DNA of 64,000 bases from an uncultured Nitrospiraceae bacterium (GTDB taxonomy: Bacteria; Nitrospirota; Thermodesulfovibrionia; Thermodesulfovibrionales; Dissulfurispiraceae). The notes beneath the pieces are model-generated. The model had not been told where the DNA came from. It did not search any database and saw nothing but the letters and a program-made list of their open reading frames with translations. Made by a program: the position numbers and the translations under genes. Below, one piece after another: positions 3,222 to 63,720 of this stretch (the stretch's first letter is position 1; each line of letters begins with the position of its first letter). Location: NCBI GenBank assembly GCA_963705105.1, contig CAVPIW010000005.1:256001-320000 (forward strand). Direction: 5' to 3'.

Positions 3222-3346
3222 AATGCTTCCCCTGTGTGTTTATTCGGTTTTGCTATCAAAGTATTTTAGCATAGACCTGATCGATGCATAAGCCCCGGAA
3301 AAATCATTAAGCCACGAGTCATTAGGCGGTAGTCGACAGTCGGAAC

Positions 3347-3536
3347 CAGACGACAAAGGCACCGACGGAAAGGCTGATGTGGCGAAAAGCCTTTCCTCTA
3401 GGATGCCTTGTTCATCTCCGGACCACCCTTCGCCGTGTCGATCGATACCGGAAGCCCGTCAGGCAACAGAGGCCGAACACCTTGAGATGTCTCATCATCG
3501 CCTTGGAAAGACTTTGAACCATTTCTGCCTACCCGG
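3347..3536. repeat. 170-nt rod-hairpin repeat family, copy 1
   Basis: Colinear without indels with 53651-53820 and 60759-60928; ends are imperfect inverted repeats. Confidence 0.85.
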
Positions 3537-3626
3537 CGGGGAGCAACGTTCAAGGGGAGAGAGTTAACTTGCACAGCTGCCGGTCGGGTGACTGTTTTTC
3601 GCACAGATGTGGTAAAATAAAAAATT

Positions 3627-3710
3627 GCCGAAGTGGCGGAATTGGCAGACGCGCTAGGTTCAGGGTCTAGTGGTCGAGAGGCCGTGCGGGTTCGACTCCC
3701 GCCTTCGGCA
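3627..3710 (+). tRNA. tRNA-Leu(CAG), CCA not encoded
   Basis: Acceptor stem GCCGAAG/CTTCGGC; anticodon arm CTAGG-TTCAGGG-TCTAG; long variable arm; GGTTCGACTCC T-loop. Confidence 0.95.
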
Positions 3711-3742
3711 TTTTTTTATGCCTCACGGGCATGCTACCGCCT

Positions 3743-5284: not shown

Positions 5285-5385
5285 CTTAAACTTATCGCTG
5301 CAACGGGACATCCGGAAAGGCGGGGCGAAGATGCCGTAGAACAGTACACAGCAGACAGGAATCAGACGACAAAGGCACGACGGGA
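5285..5385. repeat. Partial modular REP-like element plus truncated leader of the 170-nt family
   Basis: CTTATCGCTGCAA...GGAAAGGCGGGGCG arm, then CAGACGACAAAGGCACGACGG as at 3347. Confidence 0.65.
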
Positions 5386-5396
5386 ATCCACACATG

Positions 5397-8352: not shown

Positions 8353-9364
8353 TGGGGTCAGACTTGCAAATTGCTTTTGGCTCTCTGAAACTTCAGAATC
8401 TTAATAACTTCCGACATCTGCTCTTTAACGTCTTCAGCTTCCATGAGATATCTTGTGATCACCGCAGGATCTCTTTTCAGGTATCCGGCTATCTCTTTGC
8501 CGCGATACCCATACTCCTTCGCCATCTGACTGAAGAGCCTCCTCGCCGCCATAACTTCAGCCCCCTTGCCTTTCTCTCTCATCGTAGCAAGGTTAATCCC
8601 ACGGACGTGTTCTATTCCCTGGACGATCTCCCGTAATGTATATTCTTTTGGTCTCTTTGTCATCGTGAGTTGGAGTTTGTATTTCTCTTTCACTTCCTCT
8701 GCAAAGCTCTCATCGCCGAGTATCCTCTGGTCTACGGTCCGGTAGACATCATCTTTGCTCACTGCACTACCTTCCTCCATAAAGGCCTGATAAAGTCGCC
8801 GCGCCCCGCCTGTTTCCTCTGAAAACATCCGCAGCACCCGATCCGTATCAACCAGCCCCGCACTGTCCGCCTTGGTGATGTAAAATTTGTGGCTGCTCCA
8901 CGAATATACGCCCGGATGCTTCACGAGTCGCGCTCTGACAGGATTCCGGTGGATGTACTTAAGCAGGGTCAGCAGATATTCGTCTCTGTCACAGAGAATC
9001 GCTTTGTATCTGCCCTGAAAGAGGTGACCGACCTTGTTATATTTCCAGTTGAAGTATTGCGTGTATCTCTGGTTGACCCCCTGAAGGATCTTCGACAGGC
9101 CTGTCTGCCTTGTCTCAATAAGAAGGTGGACATGGTTGCGCATCAAAACATAAGCGTACAGCAGAAAGTTGTATCGACTTTTATAGTCGGCGATGATGTT
9201 GAGGTATTTTTCATAGTCGCCGTCATCTCTGAAGATGCGCTGTTTTTGATTGCCGCGCGTGATGACGTGATAAAAGGCTCCTTCAAATTCGATGCGAGGC
9301 TTCCGCGCCATTAATTATATTAGCAATGTTTTAATGCTTAATGCAATTTGCAAGTCTGACCCCA
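8353..9364 (-). mobile_element. Y1/HUH transposase element with 22-bp perfect terminal inverted repeats
   Basis: TGGGGTCAGACTTGCAAATTGC at 8353-8374 and its reverse complement at 9343-9364; interior visibly lower in GC. Confidence 0.8.
8358..9311 (-). CDS. REP-associated tyrosine transposase-like protein (Y1_Tnp) with C-terminal HTH
   Basis: YHVITRGN, MRNHVHLL (HUH), FQGRY, YIHRNPV, YSWSS. Confidence 0.92.
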   Translation of the reverse strand: MARKPRIEFEGAFYHVITRGNQKQRIFRDDGDYEKYLNIIADYKSRYNFLLYAYVLMRNHVHLLIETRQTGLSKILQGVNQRYTQYFNWKYNKVGHLFQGRYKAILCDRDEYLLTLLKYIHRNPVRARLVKHPGVYSWSSHKFYITKADSAGLVDTDRVLRMFSEETGGARRLYQAFMEEGSAVSKDDVYRTVDQRILGDESFAEEVKEKYKLQLTMTKRPKEYTLREIVQGIEHVRGINLATMREKGKGAEVMAARRLFSQMAKEYGYRGKEIAGYLKRDPAVITRYLMEAEDVKEQMSEVIKILKFQRAKSNLQV

Positions 9365-10270: not shown

Positions 10271-10461
10271 TGCATGCACCCTCCGGAAAGGCGGGGCGTA
10301 TGCGCCGAAAAACCTCGGTGCTGCGAAACCTTTGCCTTCCCATAAAGACTGTTTCAGGCGACGGTCATTGCCACAAAGGATGGAATCCCTAAGCCCGATT
10401 TAGAATAATCACTCTCGCTATCGGCGAGGCTTTGAGGCGCCTTGCCCCGCCTTTTCATGCT
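10271..10461. repeat. Modular REP-like inverted-repeat element
   Basis: GAAAGGCGGGGCG...GCCCCGCCTTTTCATGC arms; left ~85 bp matches the reverse complement of 63612-63697. Confidence 0.8.
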
Positions 10462-27636: not shown

Positions 27637-27820
27637 AGGTGAGCCTACCCTGTTTGTGATTAGGGCGGAAATGTTGATCCCTCAAATTAGATTTTTGGGA
27701 GCTGATGTTTGGTACGCGGTGTGCAGGTCTTCCATAGAGAAGAAAGCCTAAGGTACCTTCTGGGCACCCACCTGTCGACACAGGGATCTGATTACTGCCT
27801 ACACGGCAGGGTGGGCCTGA
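27637..27820 (+). ncRNA. ssrS: 6S RNA
   Basis: About 180-nt rod: GCCTACCCTG pairs CAGGGTGGGC, GATCCCT pairs AGGGATC, central bubble; TTGCTT/TATAAA promoter upstream; directly upstream of rny. Confidence 0.75.
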
Positions 27821-28115
27821 CGACCGGATAGATGCAATACGCGCATAGAATAGAAGAGCAGAGGACGCTGGAGATGAAAAGGGGAATAGAAGGACTGAGG
27901 GTTGTCAATGGACCGCCCCGTTTTTCTTCTGTCGTCGTCTGTGACATTCCGATCGCTGTCCACATCCAATCGCAAAGGCCCATGTGATTCGTTCGTAAGC
28001 CTTTGACTGTATTGTCCTATTCGCCGTCGTCACGAGTGTAATCCCGTAACCGGCCTTCCCGACGGGCATCGCCGCCGGTTACGCCACGCGTTCCACAGTG
28101 AGGAGGGGTTCCCCC

Positions 28116-40983: not shown

Positions 40984-41225
40984 TTAACCTTATCGTTTCA
41001 ATGAAAATGGAAGGGTTACCTTTCTGTTGCGTGAAAAAAGGCGGGGCGAAGCGCCTCAAAGCCTTGCTGAAGGCGACACCTTAACCGTCACAAAAGACAG
41101 CGTTCTCAAGCCGATGACAGAAAAAAGTGAGCTCTTTTTCTGACACTCACACTGACACTGACACTGTCTTTCAGAGCGCATACACCCCGCCTTTTCGGCG
41201 ACCCAATTGCAACGATAAGGTTTAA
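40984..41225. repeat. Modular REP-like element with outer inverted repeats
   Basis: TTAACCTTATCGTTTCAA...TTGCAACGATAAGGTTTAA; inner AAAGGCGGGG/CCCCGCCTTT; CACTGA hexamers. Confidence 0.8.
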
Positions 41226-51970: not shown

Positions 51971-53104
51971 TCATGACAGAAGGGACTGCTTCGCTTTTTT
52001 TCGAAGGATGATCAGGCAGACGAAGAGCGCTGCCAGAACGCCGAAGAGCAGCAGGGATTTTCCCATCAGGATCCCCGACAAGTCACCGCCGCCGGCCGCC
52101 GCTCCGCTCTGTTTCGTGGCCAGATAGGCGAGCCAGCCGCCCATGCCCGCGTTGGCGATATACTGTTTTGCCAGCCTGTAGCCGTTGCCGTAGACGGGGT
52201 CCATATTCCTCTCTATGGCTGCAATGGCCTGTTCCGCTTCCGGACTCCTTTCGTCTGCGAGCACCATGACGGCGAGAGCCTGACAGCTTCCTTCCTCGAA
52301 GGTCTCGTCGAGGCCGTGGTTGTCCTTCAGCCTTATCCAGGCGTGGCAGAGCTCGTGGGCCGCGACCTCGAGGAAATTGACGTGGGGCAATCCTTCGAGG
52401 ATGAGGATCTCCAGTCCCTCCGTCCTCTGGTCATTGAATGTGCGGACGGTGTTAACGTGTGTCACCCCGTTTATCCCCTTTTTCCCCATGATCTCTTCGA
52501 GACGGAAGGCTGTTGCCAGGCGGAGAGGGATCTCCCGGTCGGGAAAGACGAATCCATAGCGGGCAATCTTTGTTTTTACTTCCTTGAACAAATCTGCCGC
52601 CTCACCCTCTTTCCAGACCGTCGTCCTGTCACACCTGTCACAGACGGTCCTGCCATCCTGGTAACGACTGTTCTCACCGGACTGAGCGCGTTGTATCACC
52701 CGGCCGCAGTATGTACAGTGCTTCAGTTCAGCCTGATGATGGGGATGATATTTTGTGCCCCACTCATCTGTCAGGTAGCGCCCCTCGAGAATCTGACCGC
52801 ATATGTCGCACTTGGGAAGGGCCTTCTGCTTATAGCAATTCGGGTGTAAGTATTTCCCGTCGTCTTTCGCAATGTCACCGTGAATAGGTTCGTTGCAGAG
52901 AGCGCAGAGAAGATGCCCCGGATGGAAAAACCTGTCATCGACCTGCAGATGTTGTCCCTCAATTTCCTCGCCGCAGTGATGACAGACGACGCCGGCAGGA
53001 GCGGGATCGGGACAAAATGCAACGATGAGCAGGATTAGGACTGCACAGATAAAATAAAGACGCTCCTTCAAACGCCGGAGCGGGGTTGTCCTGTGGGCTG
53101 ACAT
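51971..53104 (-). CDS. LIM-like zinc finger plus DA1-like HExxH metallopeptidase, membrane anchored
   Basis: Repeated CxxC...H(P)xH/C modules; AHELCHAW, EEGSCQ, DPVYGNGYR; N-terminal signal and C-terminal TM. Confidence 0.8.
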   Translation of the reverse strand: MSAHRTTPLRRLKERLYFICAVLILLIVAFCPDPAPAGVVCHHCGEEIEGQHLQVDDRFFHPGHLLCALCNEPIHGDIAKDDGKYLHPNCYKQKALPKCDICGQILEGRYLTDEWGTKYHPHHQAELKHCTYCGRVIQRAQSGENSRYQDGRTVCDRCDRTTVWKEGEAADLFKEVKTKIARYGFVFPDREIPLRLATAFRLEEIMGKKGINGVTHVNTVRTFNDQRTEGLEILILEGLPHVNFLEVAAHELCHAWIRLKDNHGLDETFEEGSCQALAVMVLADERSPEAEQAIAAIERNMDPVYGNGYRLAKQYIANAGMGGWLAYLATKQSGAAAGGGDLSGILMGKSLLLFGVLAALFVCLIILRKKAKQSLLS

Positions 53105-53218: not shown

Positions 53219-53381
53219 GTGACGATCTCCTAAAAAGTCGTCATATCCGCAAAGCTTGTCCCCGCAGATAGTAAGCGGGGAGCGGGTATCCAGAGTACAA
53301 ATAACTACCTGAAGGACTGGATTCCCGTCTGCACTGGAATGACGGATAAGCCCTTTACAGGACTTTTTACGAGGCTGTCAA
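53219..53381. repeat. Palindromic repeat of the GGGTATCCAG/CTGGATTCCCG type
   Basis: Outer inverted repeat CTC.TAAAAAGTC/GACTTTTTACGAG; inner CGGGTATCCAG/CTGGATTCCCG. Confidence 0.7.
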
Positions 53382-53395
53382 CAGTAGACCCTGCA

Positions 53396-53600
53396 GTTGC
53401 ATGAAAAGGCGGGGCGAAGAGCCTCAAAGCCTTGCTGAAGGCGACGATGATCATTGTCATCTTCGTGTTTCAGGATTCCACTCTTTGTGTCATCGACCAT
53501 TTGCGAATAGTTTGTCTTTCGTCTTGATGCAGGTGTCGCCGCAGCAAGGTTTTCGGCACATACACCCCGCCTTTCCGGGAGTGTATTGCAACGATAAGGT
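53396..53600. repeat. Modular REP-like element
   Basis: TTGCATGAAAAGGCGGGGCG...CACCCCGCCTTTCCGGGAGTGTATTGCAACGATAAGGT; arms match 41027-41075 and 24880-24950. Confidence 0.8.
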
Positions 53601-53631
53601 AGACAGAATACAGTGGACAATAGACAGCAAC

Positions 53632-53908
53632 CAGATGACGAACATGCCGACGGGGAGGCTGATGTGGTGAAAAGCATTTCCGCTAAGATACCTTATTCGT
53701 CCCCAGACTACCCTCTGCCGTGTCTATCGGTGCCAGATACCCGTCAGGCAACAGGCGCTAAACACCTCGAAATGTCTCATCATCGCATTGGAAAGGCGTT
53801 GAACCATATCTGCCTCCCCGGAGGCAGCGGTGGTGACACCGACTCTGACACTGACACTCACACTGTCACTGTTTTTCAGAGCGCTTCGCCCCGCCTTTTC
53901 ATGCAACC
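53632..53908. repeat. 170-nt rod-hairpin copy 2 plus hexamer tract and REP-like arm
   Basis: Hairpin at 53651-53820; near-colinear with 60740-61003. Confidence 0.85.
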
Positions 53909-53944
53909 GCAAGGTAAAATTATAGGGGCATTCGGCTGACGACG

Positions 53945-54913
53945 TTACTCCAGCATTATGCCCGTCACGATGATGACGAGAGTACCTGCAAAGATGAGCA
54001 GCAGGGCCGTCGTCTCGAGAAAATGCCCCATGCGGTAACGCTTGTTGAACTCTCCGAGGCGGTATTGCTTGAACCACGTCCCGGAAAAGGGCATGGCGTA
54101 GGCGCGGATTTCCTCGAGCGCCATCAGCAGGTTGGCGTCTTCGTGAAGGACCGATCTCAGGAAACGGCCGGCATGAATGGCCAGGAATCCGCCTGAGCAG
54201 AGCAGAAAGACGGCCGGGAACAGATAGATCATCCCATGAGGCATGTTGCGCCTCAGAAAGAGGAGCGCCAGGGCGGCCAGGACGGCGGCGGTCAAGGCAA
54301 CGAGGATCACGATCTGTCCTATCTTCTCCTGTCCCCTGGCCGAACAGAAGCCGAAGTACGTGCTCTCCACCTTTTTCGGATCGGCAGCTTCTTCCTGGAC
54401 CGCCCGGACCGGTTCGCGCTGCGTAACCTGAGAGGCCTGTCGATCGTCCGCTGACTCCTCCATGCTCGTCCCGTCACCCGGTGTTTCCCTTTGAACGTGA
54501 AAGACGACGGACTCCGTCAGTCTCCTGATTTCCCGGGACAGGCGCGCGGGATCGCGCAGGTCGGCTCCGAGCTTGCCGGCCAGAAAGGGCGGCACCTCGC
54601 AGGTATTGATGACGACGGGAAAGACGGTGAACCGCCTTCCGCCGATGTCCGTCGTCATTGCGCGGATCAATTCGCTCCGGACCCAGTCGGTCATGACGGA
54701 CTGGCTCGATATAAGTGCGATGACGACGTCATGCCTTCCCGTCGCATCCCCGATTTTTCGCAGCAGCGACTCGCCCTGTTTCATCTCATCCTCGTCGAGC
54801 CGGACCTGGATGTCTTCGTTGTTCAGCTCCCTGATGATGCGACGCGCCATGGGTTTATCCGAATAACAATGTACAAGAAAAACCGAATGTGCGGTACTCC
54901 CCTGCCCGCTCAT
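53945..54913 (-). CDS. TIR-domain protein with three predicted C-terminal TM helices
   Basis: VFLVH..SDK, DEDEMKQGESL, ISSQSV.TDWVRSEL, VFPVVI..CEVPPFL; three hydrophobic segments. Confidence 0.8.
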   Translation of the reverse strand: MSGQGSTAHSVFLVHCYSDKPMARRIIRELNNEDIQVRLDEDEMKQGESLLRKIGDATGRHDVVIALISSQSVMTDWVRSELIRAMTTDIGGRRFTVFPVVINTCEVPPFLAGKLGADLRDPARLSREIRRLTESVVFHVQRETPGDGTSMEESADDRQASQVTQREPVRAVQEEAADPKKVESTYFGFCSARGQEKIGQIVILVALTAAVLAALALLFLRRNMPHGMIYLFPAVFLLCSGGFLAIHAGRFLRSVLHEDANLLMALEEIRAYAMPFSGTWFKQYRLGEFNKRYRMGHFLETTALLLIFAGTLVIIVTGIMLE

Positions 54914-60357: not shown

Positions 60358-60415
60358 GAGTACACCTCACATTTCCAAGTCAAAAAGTTTACCATACGGG
60401 AATCACTTTTTGAAT

Positions 60416-60630
60416 CATTGGTGTCCAAAATAACGTGACACGAGGAGAGGGCATGCTTTCTTCGCAAAATAAACTACCTCTCCTCAAGGGCATGTCTCTA
60501 GTATGAAAACATATGTCTTCGCAGGTACACTGTACGGCTCCCGCTACGGCTTGCGCCTTCGACTCCCGCCGCCGTTCACAGTACCCGTGAATTTTGCTTC
60601 AAAAACCAAACCCTCTCCTCGTTTTCGACG
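60416..60630. repeat. Intergenic repeat (TGGTGTCC family), long copy
   Basis: ACGAGGAGAGGG (60440-60451) pairs CCCTCTCCTCGT (60611-60622); ends shared with 6358-6447. Confidence 0.6.
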
Positions 60631-60667
60631 TCTCACTGTGAAATAATTACCATATCGTTTGCAGACG

Positions 60668-61003
60668 TGCGACCGAAAGGCGGGATGTATGCGCTGCTTA
60701 CAAACAGCAGACAGAATTCAGTAAACAATAGACAGCAACCAGACGACGAACACACCGACGGGAAGGCTGATGTGGTGAAAAGCCTTTCCGCTAAGATACC
60801 GTGTTCGTCCCCGGACCACACTTTGCCGTGTCTACCGATACCAGATGCCCGTCAGGCAAGAGGCGCTGAACACCTCGATATGTCTCATCATCGCATTGGA
60901 AAGGCTTTGAACCATATCTGCCTTCCCGGAGGCAGTGACACCGACACTGACACTCACACTGTCACTGTTTTTCAGAGCACTTTGTCCCGACTTTTCATAC
61001 AAC
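60668..61003. repeat. Modular REP-like element enclosing 170-nt rod-hairpin copy 3
   Basis: GAAAGGCGGGATGTATGCG arm, hairpin at 60759-60928, CACTGA tract, degenerate right arm. Confidence 0.85.
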
Positions 61004-61070
61004 TGGTAAGAATATAATACCTCCGTAGACAAATTGCCGGTCCTGTGGTACCCTTTATGAGAAACGGCAG

Positions 61071-62801
61071 ATGAATACCACAACTGCATATCATGACATC
61101 GTCATCGTCGGCTCCGGCCTCGCCGGGTTGAGGGCGGCCCTCGAAGTCGCCGGCAAGGCGGACGTCGCCGTGATCAGCAAGGTCTACCCGACCCGCTCCC
61201 ACTCGGGCGCCGCCCAGGGAGGGATCGCCGCCGCCCTCGGCAACGAAGAGAGCGACTCCTGGGAATGGCACATGTTCGACACGGTGAAGGGCGGCGATTA
61301 CCTCACCGACCAGGACGCCGCAGAGATTCTCGCACGCGACGCTCCGAGGGCAGTCTATGAATTGGAGCATTGGGGAGTTCCTTTCAACAGGACGCCCGAC
61401 GGGAGAATAGCACAGCGCGCCTTCGGCGGACACACGAGCGAATTCGGACGGGCAGCCGTGAAAAGGGCCTGCCATGCCGCCGACCGGTCGGGACGGGTCA
61501 TGCTCGACATCATGTACTGGGAGGCGGTGCGCCGGGGGATCAAAGTATACAGCGAGTTTCATGTCCTCGATCTCGTCATGACGGGAGACGGTGTCGCAGG
61601 GATCGTCGCCTGTGAGTTTGCCACGGGACAGATCCATGTCTTTCATTCCAAAATCGTGCTCCTCGCCACGGGAGGGTTCGGCAAGGTCTACAGGACGACA
61701 TCGAACTGTTTTGCAAACACCGGCGACGGCGTCGCCATGGCCTTCCGGTCCGGCATACCGCTCGAGGACATGGAATTCGTCCAGATCCATCCGACGGGCA
61801 TCTACGGTCTCGGAGTCCTCATCAGCGAGGCCGCCCGCGGCGAGGGAGGCATCCTGAGAAACAGGGACGGAGAGGCCTTCATGGGACGCTATGCCCCGAC
61901 GGTAAAAGATCTCGCGGCGAGAGACGTCGTGAGCAGGGCCATCTATACCGAAATCCGCGAGGGCAGGGGGATTGACGGAAAGGACTTCGTCCATCTCGAC
62001 CTTACCCATCTGGGGAGGGAGAAAATCGCCGAGAAGCTCTCCGACATCAGCTCATTCGCCACAATCTACCTCGGCGTGGATGCCACGAAATCGCCCATCC
62101 CCGTGCAACCGACCTGCCATTACATGATGGGCGGGATCCCCACAAACTTGGACGGTCAGGTGCTCAGCGAGAATCACGAACCCGTGCCCGGTCTCTATGC
62201 TGCGGGAGAATGCGCATGCCTCTCTCTCCACGGCGCGAACCGCCTCGGCTGCAACTCTCTCCTGGACCTCGTCATCTTCGGCAGGAGGGCGGGTCTGAAA
62301 ATGGCAGAGGAAGTCGGGCGCCTCCAGTTCGTCGATCTCCCCCATCGCCCCGAGGCGAGGGTGACGGACACCGCAGCCGTCCTCAGGGAACGGAAGACGG
62401 GAGAACGGGCGACCGCAATCAGGAGCCTGATGCAGCAGACAATGACAGACCGCTGTTCCGTCTTCCGGACGAGAAATGGACTGATGGAGGCCCTTTCCAT
62501 ACTCAGGGGATTGCGGGACCGGTTCGATCAGGTCATCATCGCCGACAAGGGCGAGCGCTTTAACACCGACCTGCTGGAGGTGCTCGAGTTGGAGTCCCTG
62601 CTGTCCCTGGCGGAGACCATTGTCCGCTCGGCCCTCGCCAGGGAGGAGAGCCGGGGCGCTCACTTCAGGGAGGATTTCCCGGACAGGGACGATGCGAACT
62701 GCCTCAAGCACACGTTGATCAGGAAGGACGGCGAAGGCTGCCGCATCTTCTACAAGCCTGTGCGCATCACCCGTTTCCAGCCCCAGAAGAGGGTCTACTG
62801 A
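61071..62801 (+). CDS. sdhA: Succinate dehydrogenase/fumarate reductase flavoprotein
   Basis: [41 protein letters not shown]. Confidence 0.93.
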
Positions 62802-63528: not shown

Positions 63529-63720
63529 CTGCACGGAAAGGCGGGGCGAAGCGCCTCTAAAAACAGTGTCAGTGTCAGTGTGAGTGTCAGCAAAAGGGTC
63601 ACTTTTTTCAGCCGTCAGCCTGAAATGGTCTTTATGGGAAGGCAGAGGTTTCGCAGCACCGAGGCTTGTCGGCGCATACGCCCCGCCTTTCCGGAGGCCC
63701 GATTGCAACGTTGAGGTTTA
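63529..63720. repeat. Modular REP-like element between convergent genes
   Basis: GGAAAGGCGGGGCG...CGCCCCGCCTTTCC arms; CAGTGT hexamers; terminal TTGCAACGTTGAGGTTTA. Confidence 0.8.

Follow-up and report, generated by a model that had tools for sequence, protein, structure and literature searches.

Bacterial MITEs such as Correia/CREE, ERIC, Nezha and TIME are portrayed in the passages cited here as short, multicopy, intergenic elements without a transposase, with IS-like terminal repeats, target duplications and a predicted long stem-loop, and the model put forward there has them moved by a transposase acting in trans (PMC3184786, PMC4133298). The bcr1 element of the Bacillus cereus group is described in one of these sources as about 155 bp long, mobile and flanked by direct repeats, with compensatory changes that keep its structure and with some copies in which the structure is lost (PMC3184786). 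The IS1380 family (NF033539, PF13701; ISEcp1, ISPme1) has, in the account cited, terminal repeats of about 15-17 bp that start with CC and contain GTTGCA, T/A-rich 4-bp targets, outward promoters and end misrecognition (PMC9330008). Bacterial MITEs often fold into stems, and the fold could simply follow from the inverted repeats, could be an RNA feature selected by the host, or could be a part of the jumping mechanism. REPINs are abundant intergenic imperfect palindromes with strand-specific mismatches, and we know of no target duplication in the REPIN/RAYT system.

The repeat analysed here was noticed in the window, a stretch of 64,000 nucleotides from an uncultured Nitrospiraceae bacterium, where the initial annotation described a 170-nt rod-like hairpin in three indel-free copies. 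The three 170-nt stretches do lie on one strand and align without gaps, and the leader, the short repeats before the copies and the truncated leader near 5363 were all present. The count of three was far too low, since a genome-wide profile search combined with arm pairing recovered about 112 copies. The hairpin family is referred to as A and a sister subfamily of MITEs as B. The parts of the window are listed below; leaders, tails and tips were assigned from the sequence, and bit scores are those of model matches.

3276..3365, +: copy 1, 25-nt leader preceded by short tandem repeats and, at 3276, a degenerate left MITE tip
3366..3535, +: hairpin core A copy 1, stem decayed, in the glnS / tRNA-Leu interval (model 83 bits)
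5290..5386, +: truncated composite that has a left tip, a subterminal motif and a leader with heptamer repeats
10286..10457, +: B MITE core, a homologue of A (42.8 bits, E 8e-10, with B copies left out of the model)
53389..53599, -: intact B MITE within the heptamer repeats preceding copy 2 (51.5 bits; TAGA duplicated on both sides)
53600..53650, +: copy 2 leader with its heptamer repeats
53651..53820, +: hairpin core A copy 2 (sequence, fold, model 88.6 bits)
53821..53914, +: copy 2 tail, containing GACACT repeats, the subterminal motif of B and a right tip of IS left-end type
60650..60758, +: copy 3 leader with heptamer repeats and a degenerate B left end
60759..60928, +: hairpin core A copy 3 (sequence, fold, model 102.9 bits)
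60929..61011, +: copy 3 tail, containing GACACT repeats, the subterminal motif of B and a right tip that is degenerate

The core of copy 1 is not followed by a right MITE end, and the truncated composite at 5290..5386 breaks off five bases into the hairpin. Tandem repeats of 6, 7 and 8 bases, which expand, fill the space between tip and core in A composites (for example 53600-53640 and 53830-53870), and those in A leaders and tails also serve as targets for B insertion. A tRNA-Leu(CAG) gene (3626-3711, +) lies just 3′ of copy 1, and copy 2 is flanked by genes for a TIR-domain membrane protein (53945-54913, -) and a LIM/DA1-like protein (51971-53104, -). Repeats of families unrelated to A were seen ahead of copy 2 (a GC-rich palindromic REP-like unit, 53240-53345) and ahead of copy 3 (two repeats in 60400-60640, visible as depth peaks). 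Weak model matches at 41033-41196 (-, E 0.06) and 63534-63691 (-, E 0.96) are possibly decayed cores.

Cores of 168 nt run between a terminal GGG and CCC (3367-3534, 53652-53819 and 60760-60927), to which the 170-nt repeat adds one more closing pair; their pairwise identities are 137/168, 144/168 and 151/168. In copy 3 two arms of 30 bp (60760-60789 and 60898-60927) enclose an interior of 108 nt and depart from Watson-Crick pairing at a T/T, a G-T and a GA/GA, and each arm of A is itself a small palindrome. The terminal stem of about 30 bp that had been proposed for the repeat was borne out in copy 3 (z -5.49) and copy 2 (z -2.99) but not in copy 1 (z -0.57), whose fold of lowest energy differs from the rod. 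Copy 3 folds on its bottom strand too (z -3.97). The compensatory change quoted for the closing stem was real, the pair being A-T in 81 of 96 family copies, G-T in 7, G-C in 7, A-A in 1 and A-C in none. The two inner helices fared less well: GTGTTC/GAACAC exists mainly in copy 3, two of its six pairs being kept in just 10/96 and 30/96 copies, and the pairs of TTGCC/GGCAA hold in 90-96 of 96 copies but without two-sided change. Among the 30 of 96 copies tested, the A interior had no excess folding energy (median z -0.31).

A profile search of the 4.2-Mb genome returned 181 non-overlapping matches. Of these, 97 were full length, with a median identity of 89%; 73 of the 97 cores are exactly 168 nt and 90 measure 167-169 nt. 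Pairing of arms resolved the matches into 94 short copies, 18 long copies and 48 unpaired ends. The copies are dispersed over many contigs, and 111 of 112 are intergenic according to simple in-house gene calls. Most long copies contain a sister element inserted at one fixed place, and the remaining insertions in A copies are bounded by clean 4-bp duplications. Fifteen right arms stand alone, 8 of them directly 3′ of a leader, an arrangement that a deletion between the two arms, whose starts are similar, would produce. Difference from the consensus amounts to 2.6% of sites in the arms and 9.6% in the interior. In one copy (G000:C14:50607) the core is inverted relative to its flanks and the stem is extended by a perfect 10 bp, a sign of arm-to-arm template switching. 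No gene recurred among 301 flanking proteins, the neighbours being unrelated housekeeping genes, and A had no match in phage and plasmid collections or viral contigs.

A is a gene-less, non-coding element of a MITE superfamily whose ends are of IS1380 type, and the 170-nt repeat forms its inner hairpin. The reading that we favour, and consider probable, is that this non-coding hairpin of an IS1380-ended MITE was spread by an IS1380 transposase acting in trans and is needed on one strand during copying. The core alone has no IS tips, and the terminal repeats belong to the composite; a match to a known IS end, raised beforehand as evidence against a structured element, was found in the flanks. 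B is far more abundant than A, with 753 matches to its subterminal motif, some of them by chance. Of the 112 A copies, 75 have the motif on their left, 76 have it on their right and 57 have both; the 55 copies that lack it on at least one side weigh against the favoured reading. A composites with both tips readable are about 330-410 bp long, or longer if nested, and 9 of 27 have a 4-bp target duplication (shuffled mean 1.5, maximum 6 in 5000 shuffles), its absence from the other 18 likewise weighing against that reading. Of 178 plain B elements collected, 105 have two readable tips, and 60 of these carry the duplication, against a shuffled mean of 7.3. Nested insertions with duplications were also seen; they take the place of empty orthologous sites, the 40 relatives including no genome of the same genus.

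The tips of B match both ends of an IS1380 clade in relatives and metagenomes (loci L031, L033-L035 and metagenome loci). The clade was assigned by NF033539 (234 and 249 bits, cut-off 180), and 11 of its 41 loci with both ends parsed show direct repeats, which in the IS1380 family measure 4-5 bp. Leaders in this clade (L146-L225, L031) come in two lengths, about 120 and 200-256 bp; in the long ones a CAC-N5-GTG palindrome is conserved at 88-92 bp from the tip, and leaders of either length end in an inverted repeat ahead of the start codon. In 148 of 165 B1 copies the CAC-N5-GTG motif is 90-91 bp away from the tip, compared with 88-92 in the IS, at a median score of 8.6 versus -8.9 in shuffled sequence. 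The IS leader motif is missing from A and most relatives, and a leader profile did not score the cores above shuffles, except weakly for B1, so that the hairpin may or may not have come from the IS. Two further negatives count against the favoured reading: the hairpin model had no match in 19 IS1380 loci, and no IS1380 transposase was found in the genome (99% complete, 19 contigs). No transposase gene lies inside A. The ends of the genome's other DDE, IS110 and Y1 transposases, compared by eye, are unlike A.

A and B have boxes in common, a left one of GA-AAAG-N-CTT and a right one of AAGGCTTT-GA, separated by 132 bp in A and by 128-130 bp in B. In public genomes this box pattern matched at least 82 stretches, and the matches listed comprise 80 loci from 19 assemblies, 16 of Nitrospirota and one each of Chloroflexota, Bacteroidota and an unclassified lineage. 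The Bacteroidota match has no stem and was taken as chance. The span was 126-130 in 69 of the 80 listed loci, though the pattern allowed 118-149. A covariance model was built from the 3 window copies and 48 of the 80 listed loci; those set aside were 25 near-identical copies of a single assembly and a further 7. Built without the B copies, the model matched both B copies of the window, which identifies the A hairpin as homologous to the inner arms of the sister MITE. With 18 candidates scored per genome, it found cores in 11 of 150 Nitrospirota genomes. In the relatives, tips of at least 3 kinds immediately enclose the core, and the boxes stand 48-49 bp from the left tip (42 of 46 readable) and 37-38 bp from the right one (31 of 38). 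Six loci (L078, L095, L238; L229, L240, L249) have the same core with two other kinds of outer ends.

In the alignment of 51 sequences, 91.8% of cells were paired. Two-sided changes numbered 232, compared with 67.5 after shuffling and at most 74 in slid registers, a count that is inflated by relatedness and in which the central boxes were fixed by the search pattern. Across the relatives (Nitrospirota and one Chloroflexota), stem, length and GA/GA loop are kept while the sequence turns over. The left loop, which the pattern did not fix, reads GA in 45 of 51 sequences and its complement in 1 of 51. The inner pair outside the arms is C-G in 24, G-C in 5 and G-T in 1 of 30, which amounts to about two independent swaps. 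At 19 variable pairs G-T occupied 133 cells and A-C 18, a lean present in 47 of 48 relatives and 16 of 19 columns, and on a tree of the interiors parsimony gave 91 G-T versus 14 A-C events. The interiors are not rich in G+T (0.43-0.44), and a double-stranded inverted repeat gives no reason for an excess of G-T over A-C. The stem is real and favours one strand. The initial annotation was right that the closing stem is constrained: the covariation across genomes is strong and strand-specific. Within A alone the lean was not significant (G-T 45 versus A-C 30 cells, 36 versus 26 events, p 0.25), and the top strand folds better than the bottom in just 29 of 96 A copies, which weighs against the favoured reading. 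C-to-T changes exceed G-to-A changes in B1 interiors (3.3 versus 1.2 per column), so that strand-biased mutation is possible to some extent; A interiors have no such excess.

Variants private to one copy were about as frequent in the arms as in the interior (0.55 versus 0.63 per column), and those found in up to two copies equally so (1.15 and 1.15). Variants common to at least 8 copies occurred in 2 of 60 arm columns versus 36 of 108 interior columns. Equal private rates and a scarcity of common variants in the arms indicate that resident copies decay neutrally and that only sources with an intact stem left many descendants. The stem seems, then, to be filtered when copies are made and not in resident copies. 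Such a filter would point to a single-stranded step, and it explains the weak bias inside A together with the strong bias between lineages. Distance between cores was independent of distance between leaders or tails (Mantel r -0.15, 0.003 and 0.064), consistent with modules shuffled by recombination among copies. The core of copy 3 differs from that at C5:632553 at 2 of 168 positions, yet leaders and tail types are different; several of the closest core pairs do have leaders in common. What is copied may thus be the core and not the whole composite, a point against the favoured reading, and conversion may play a part in copying alongside transposition.

Under the favoured reading, an IS1380 transposase, present earlier or passing through, would have acted on the tips and left the 4-bp duplications. 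An A-type hairpin may have come inside B-type ends by replacing a broken B left arm, and the resulting composite of 330-410 bp would then have been amplified, cores and flanks later being shuffled between loci by recombination. The top strand is predicted to fold at the copying step, since the strand bias would need a single-stranded top-strand stage there, either DNA or RNA. Source copies with a broken stem would leave no offspring, and inserted copies would be free to decay. The family is presumably orphaned now, as the assembly yielded no such transposase. Protein sites may account in part for the fixed geometry. A more specific proposal, which we advance as a doubtful one, is that copying passes through a strand-specific folded intermediate (single-stranded DNA or RNA) that an IS1380-type DDE transposase or a host factor has to recognise, the fixed-length, sequence-flexible GA/GA hairpin serving as a mobility licence that can be swapped between transposon ends and phyla. 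A search of the literature found no description of a single-stranded step in IS1380 transposition. Nor did it find a published account of this hairpin family, although supplementary tables of repeats or RNA motifs could hold one.

Another view would see in A an ordinary MITE, its arms being double-stranded sites at fixed spacing for the transposase or an IHF-like bending protein and its covariation a result of arm copying, with no single-stranded fold under selection. The AAAG-N-CTTT boxes are at 48-49 and 37-38 bp from the tips, distances about one helical turn apart, a similar box occurs at 50-51 bp in 5 of 29 IS leaders, and B1 retains the IS motif at the IS distance. The inverted core at C14:50607, with its perfect 10-bp stem extension, bears the mark of arm copying. 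Arm copying, however, yields Watson-Crick pairs and cannot produce 133 G-T against 18 A-C cells. The GA/GA loop has covarying pairs on both sides and retains GA rather than the complement in nearly all left arms (45 of 51 against 1), the pair beyond the arms also swaps (24, 5 and 1 of 30), and A composites conserve the hairpin despite widely varying distance from the tips. We regard this view as unlikely, though it deserves to be taken seriously. It is less probable again that the hairpin is a structured RNA with a function of its own, such as regulating the host, providing a site for nuclease processing or assisting the transposase, and that it hitch-hikes in MITE ends. Tolerance of G-U, the tandem GA/GA loop, the fixed length and the covarying inner pair are all RNA-like, and the same core occurs inside at least 3 kinds of outer ends. 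The arms, on the other hand, are not depleted of private mutations. Between co-directional genes the A top strand is sense in 29 cases and antisense in 51 (p 0.018; B has no bias, 72 versus 60), and no promoter- or terminator-like site was seen in 60400-61100. No sign of a transcript was found; two sequencing runs that may be of RNA gave no start, end, strand or level and speak neither way. Rfam gave no match to the copies at gathering scores or to 12 loci at E up to 1. A free-standing multicopy RNA, as first suggested, finds no support, in view of the lack of an Rfam match, the homology to MITE inner arms, the 4-bp duplications and the neutral decay of resident copies.

The near-identical cores in different flanks, and the core distance that is unrelated to flank distance, could also mean that existing copies acquire the core from one another, through gene conversion or homing in which a folded single strand is the donor, the IS-type ends being no more than historical landing sites. 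Several of the closest pairs nevertheless have common leaders, ordinary recombination among more than 100 repeats predicts such mosaics, and no enzyme could be linked to the process, the genome's single reverse transcriptase having no core nearby; we think this very improbable. Least credible of all is the idea that the repeat is left over from a coding sequence or that its open plus frame encodes a peptide module of 56 residues. That frame is open in 72 of 82 ungapped copies, a number within the null (mean 61, sd 12; reached in 64 of 300), and the synonymous share of 0.36 versus a null of 0.28 was reached in 6 of 100 permutations. Codon periodicity and Pfam families were absent, 111 of 112 copies lie outside genes, and the A and B peptides have no likeness to the IS1380 transposase. 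The coding signal was thus not significant, in agreement with the initial annotation's view of the element as non-coding.

The favoured reading bears on the question of why MITEs fold, and this family separates the three options, since its stem lies apart from the terminal repeats, its bias falls on one strand, and the filter seems to act at copying and not in residents. Ready-made natural variants would permit a direct test of a single-stranded step in transposition by the IS1380 family, which is known for mobilising neighbouring genes. Should that test fail, A would be an abundant but ordinary MITE.

Among known systems, 6S RNA (RF00013) resembles A in its length near 180 nt and its long closing stem, and differs in that A is multicopy with IS-type flanks. 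The suggested likeness to a 6S-type rod was not upheld, as the copies do not match RF00013 and the window's own 6S lies elsewhere. The only Rfam families in the window were a 6S gene and a tRNA, neither at the copies; the 6S RNA gene is at 27639-27821 (+, RF00013, 70 bits). A retron RNA was considered and rejected, the one reverse transcriptase of the genome having no core within its 3.4-kb locus and no such gene being found among A neighbours. It is a stand-alone protein of 512 aa (L256, 1141-2679, +) beside an IS3-like fragment, and is possibly of a defence type. Like a REPIN, A is an abundant intergenic imperfect palindrome with palindromic arms and strand-specific mismatches; unlike the REPIN/RAYT system it has target duplications and IS1380 tips, and the earlier comparison with REPIN cargo gives way to these ends and their 4-bp duplications. 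A does not flank any of the genome's four Y1 transposase genes, which carry other flanking repeats (NF047646 tested), and model matches about 1 kb from 2 of the 4 are expected from copy density by estimate. One Y1 (IS200-like) transposase lies in the window at 8358-9311 (-), bracketed by its own short inverted repeats (REP_Tyr_transpos 72 bits, cut-off 80), and three further such genes lie elsewhere in the genome.

With the IS1380 family, as far as the cited account describes it, A has the tip type and the 4-bp targets in common, and B1 keeps the long-leader motif at the IS distance. The element differs in having no transposase gene, in a core that was not found in 19 IS loci and in the lack of the leader motif from A. 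The bcr1 element, as portrayed in its source, resembles A in size, mobility, flanking direct repeats, compensatory changes and the presence of structureless copies. It is cruciform-like, with two stem-loops and 5-bp repeats, and was shown to be transcribed (PMC3184786), whereas A, known here from DNA sequence, is one rod closed by 30 bp, with 4-bp duplications and IS1380-type tips. Measured against the MITEs in the passages cited above, A stands apart in that its long stem lies 15-30 bp inward of the tips, as a module distinct from the terminal repeat; this module turns over in sequence while keeping its pairing with a top-strand bias and, in this subfamily, is nested inside the ends of a sister MITE. 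The ends of A are thus ordinary for a MITE; what is unusual is a separable, strand-specific hairpin that seems to be filtered at copying.
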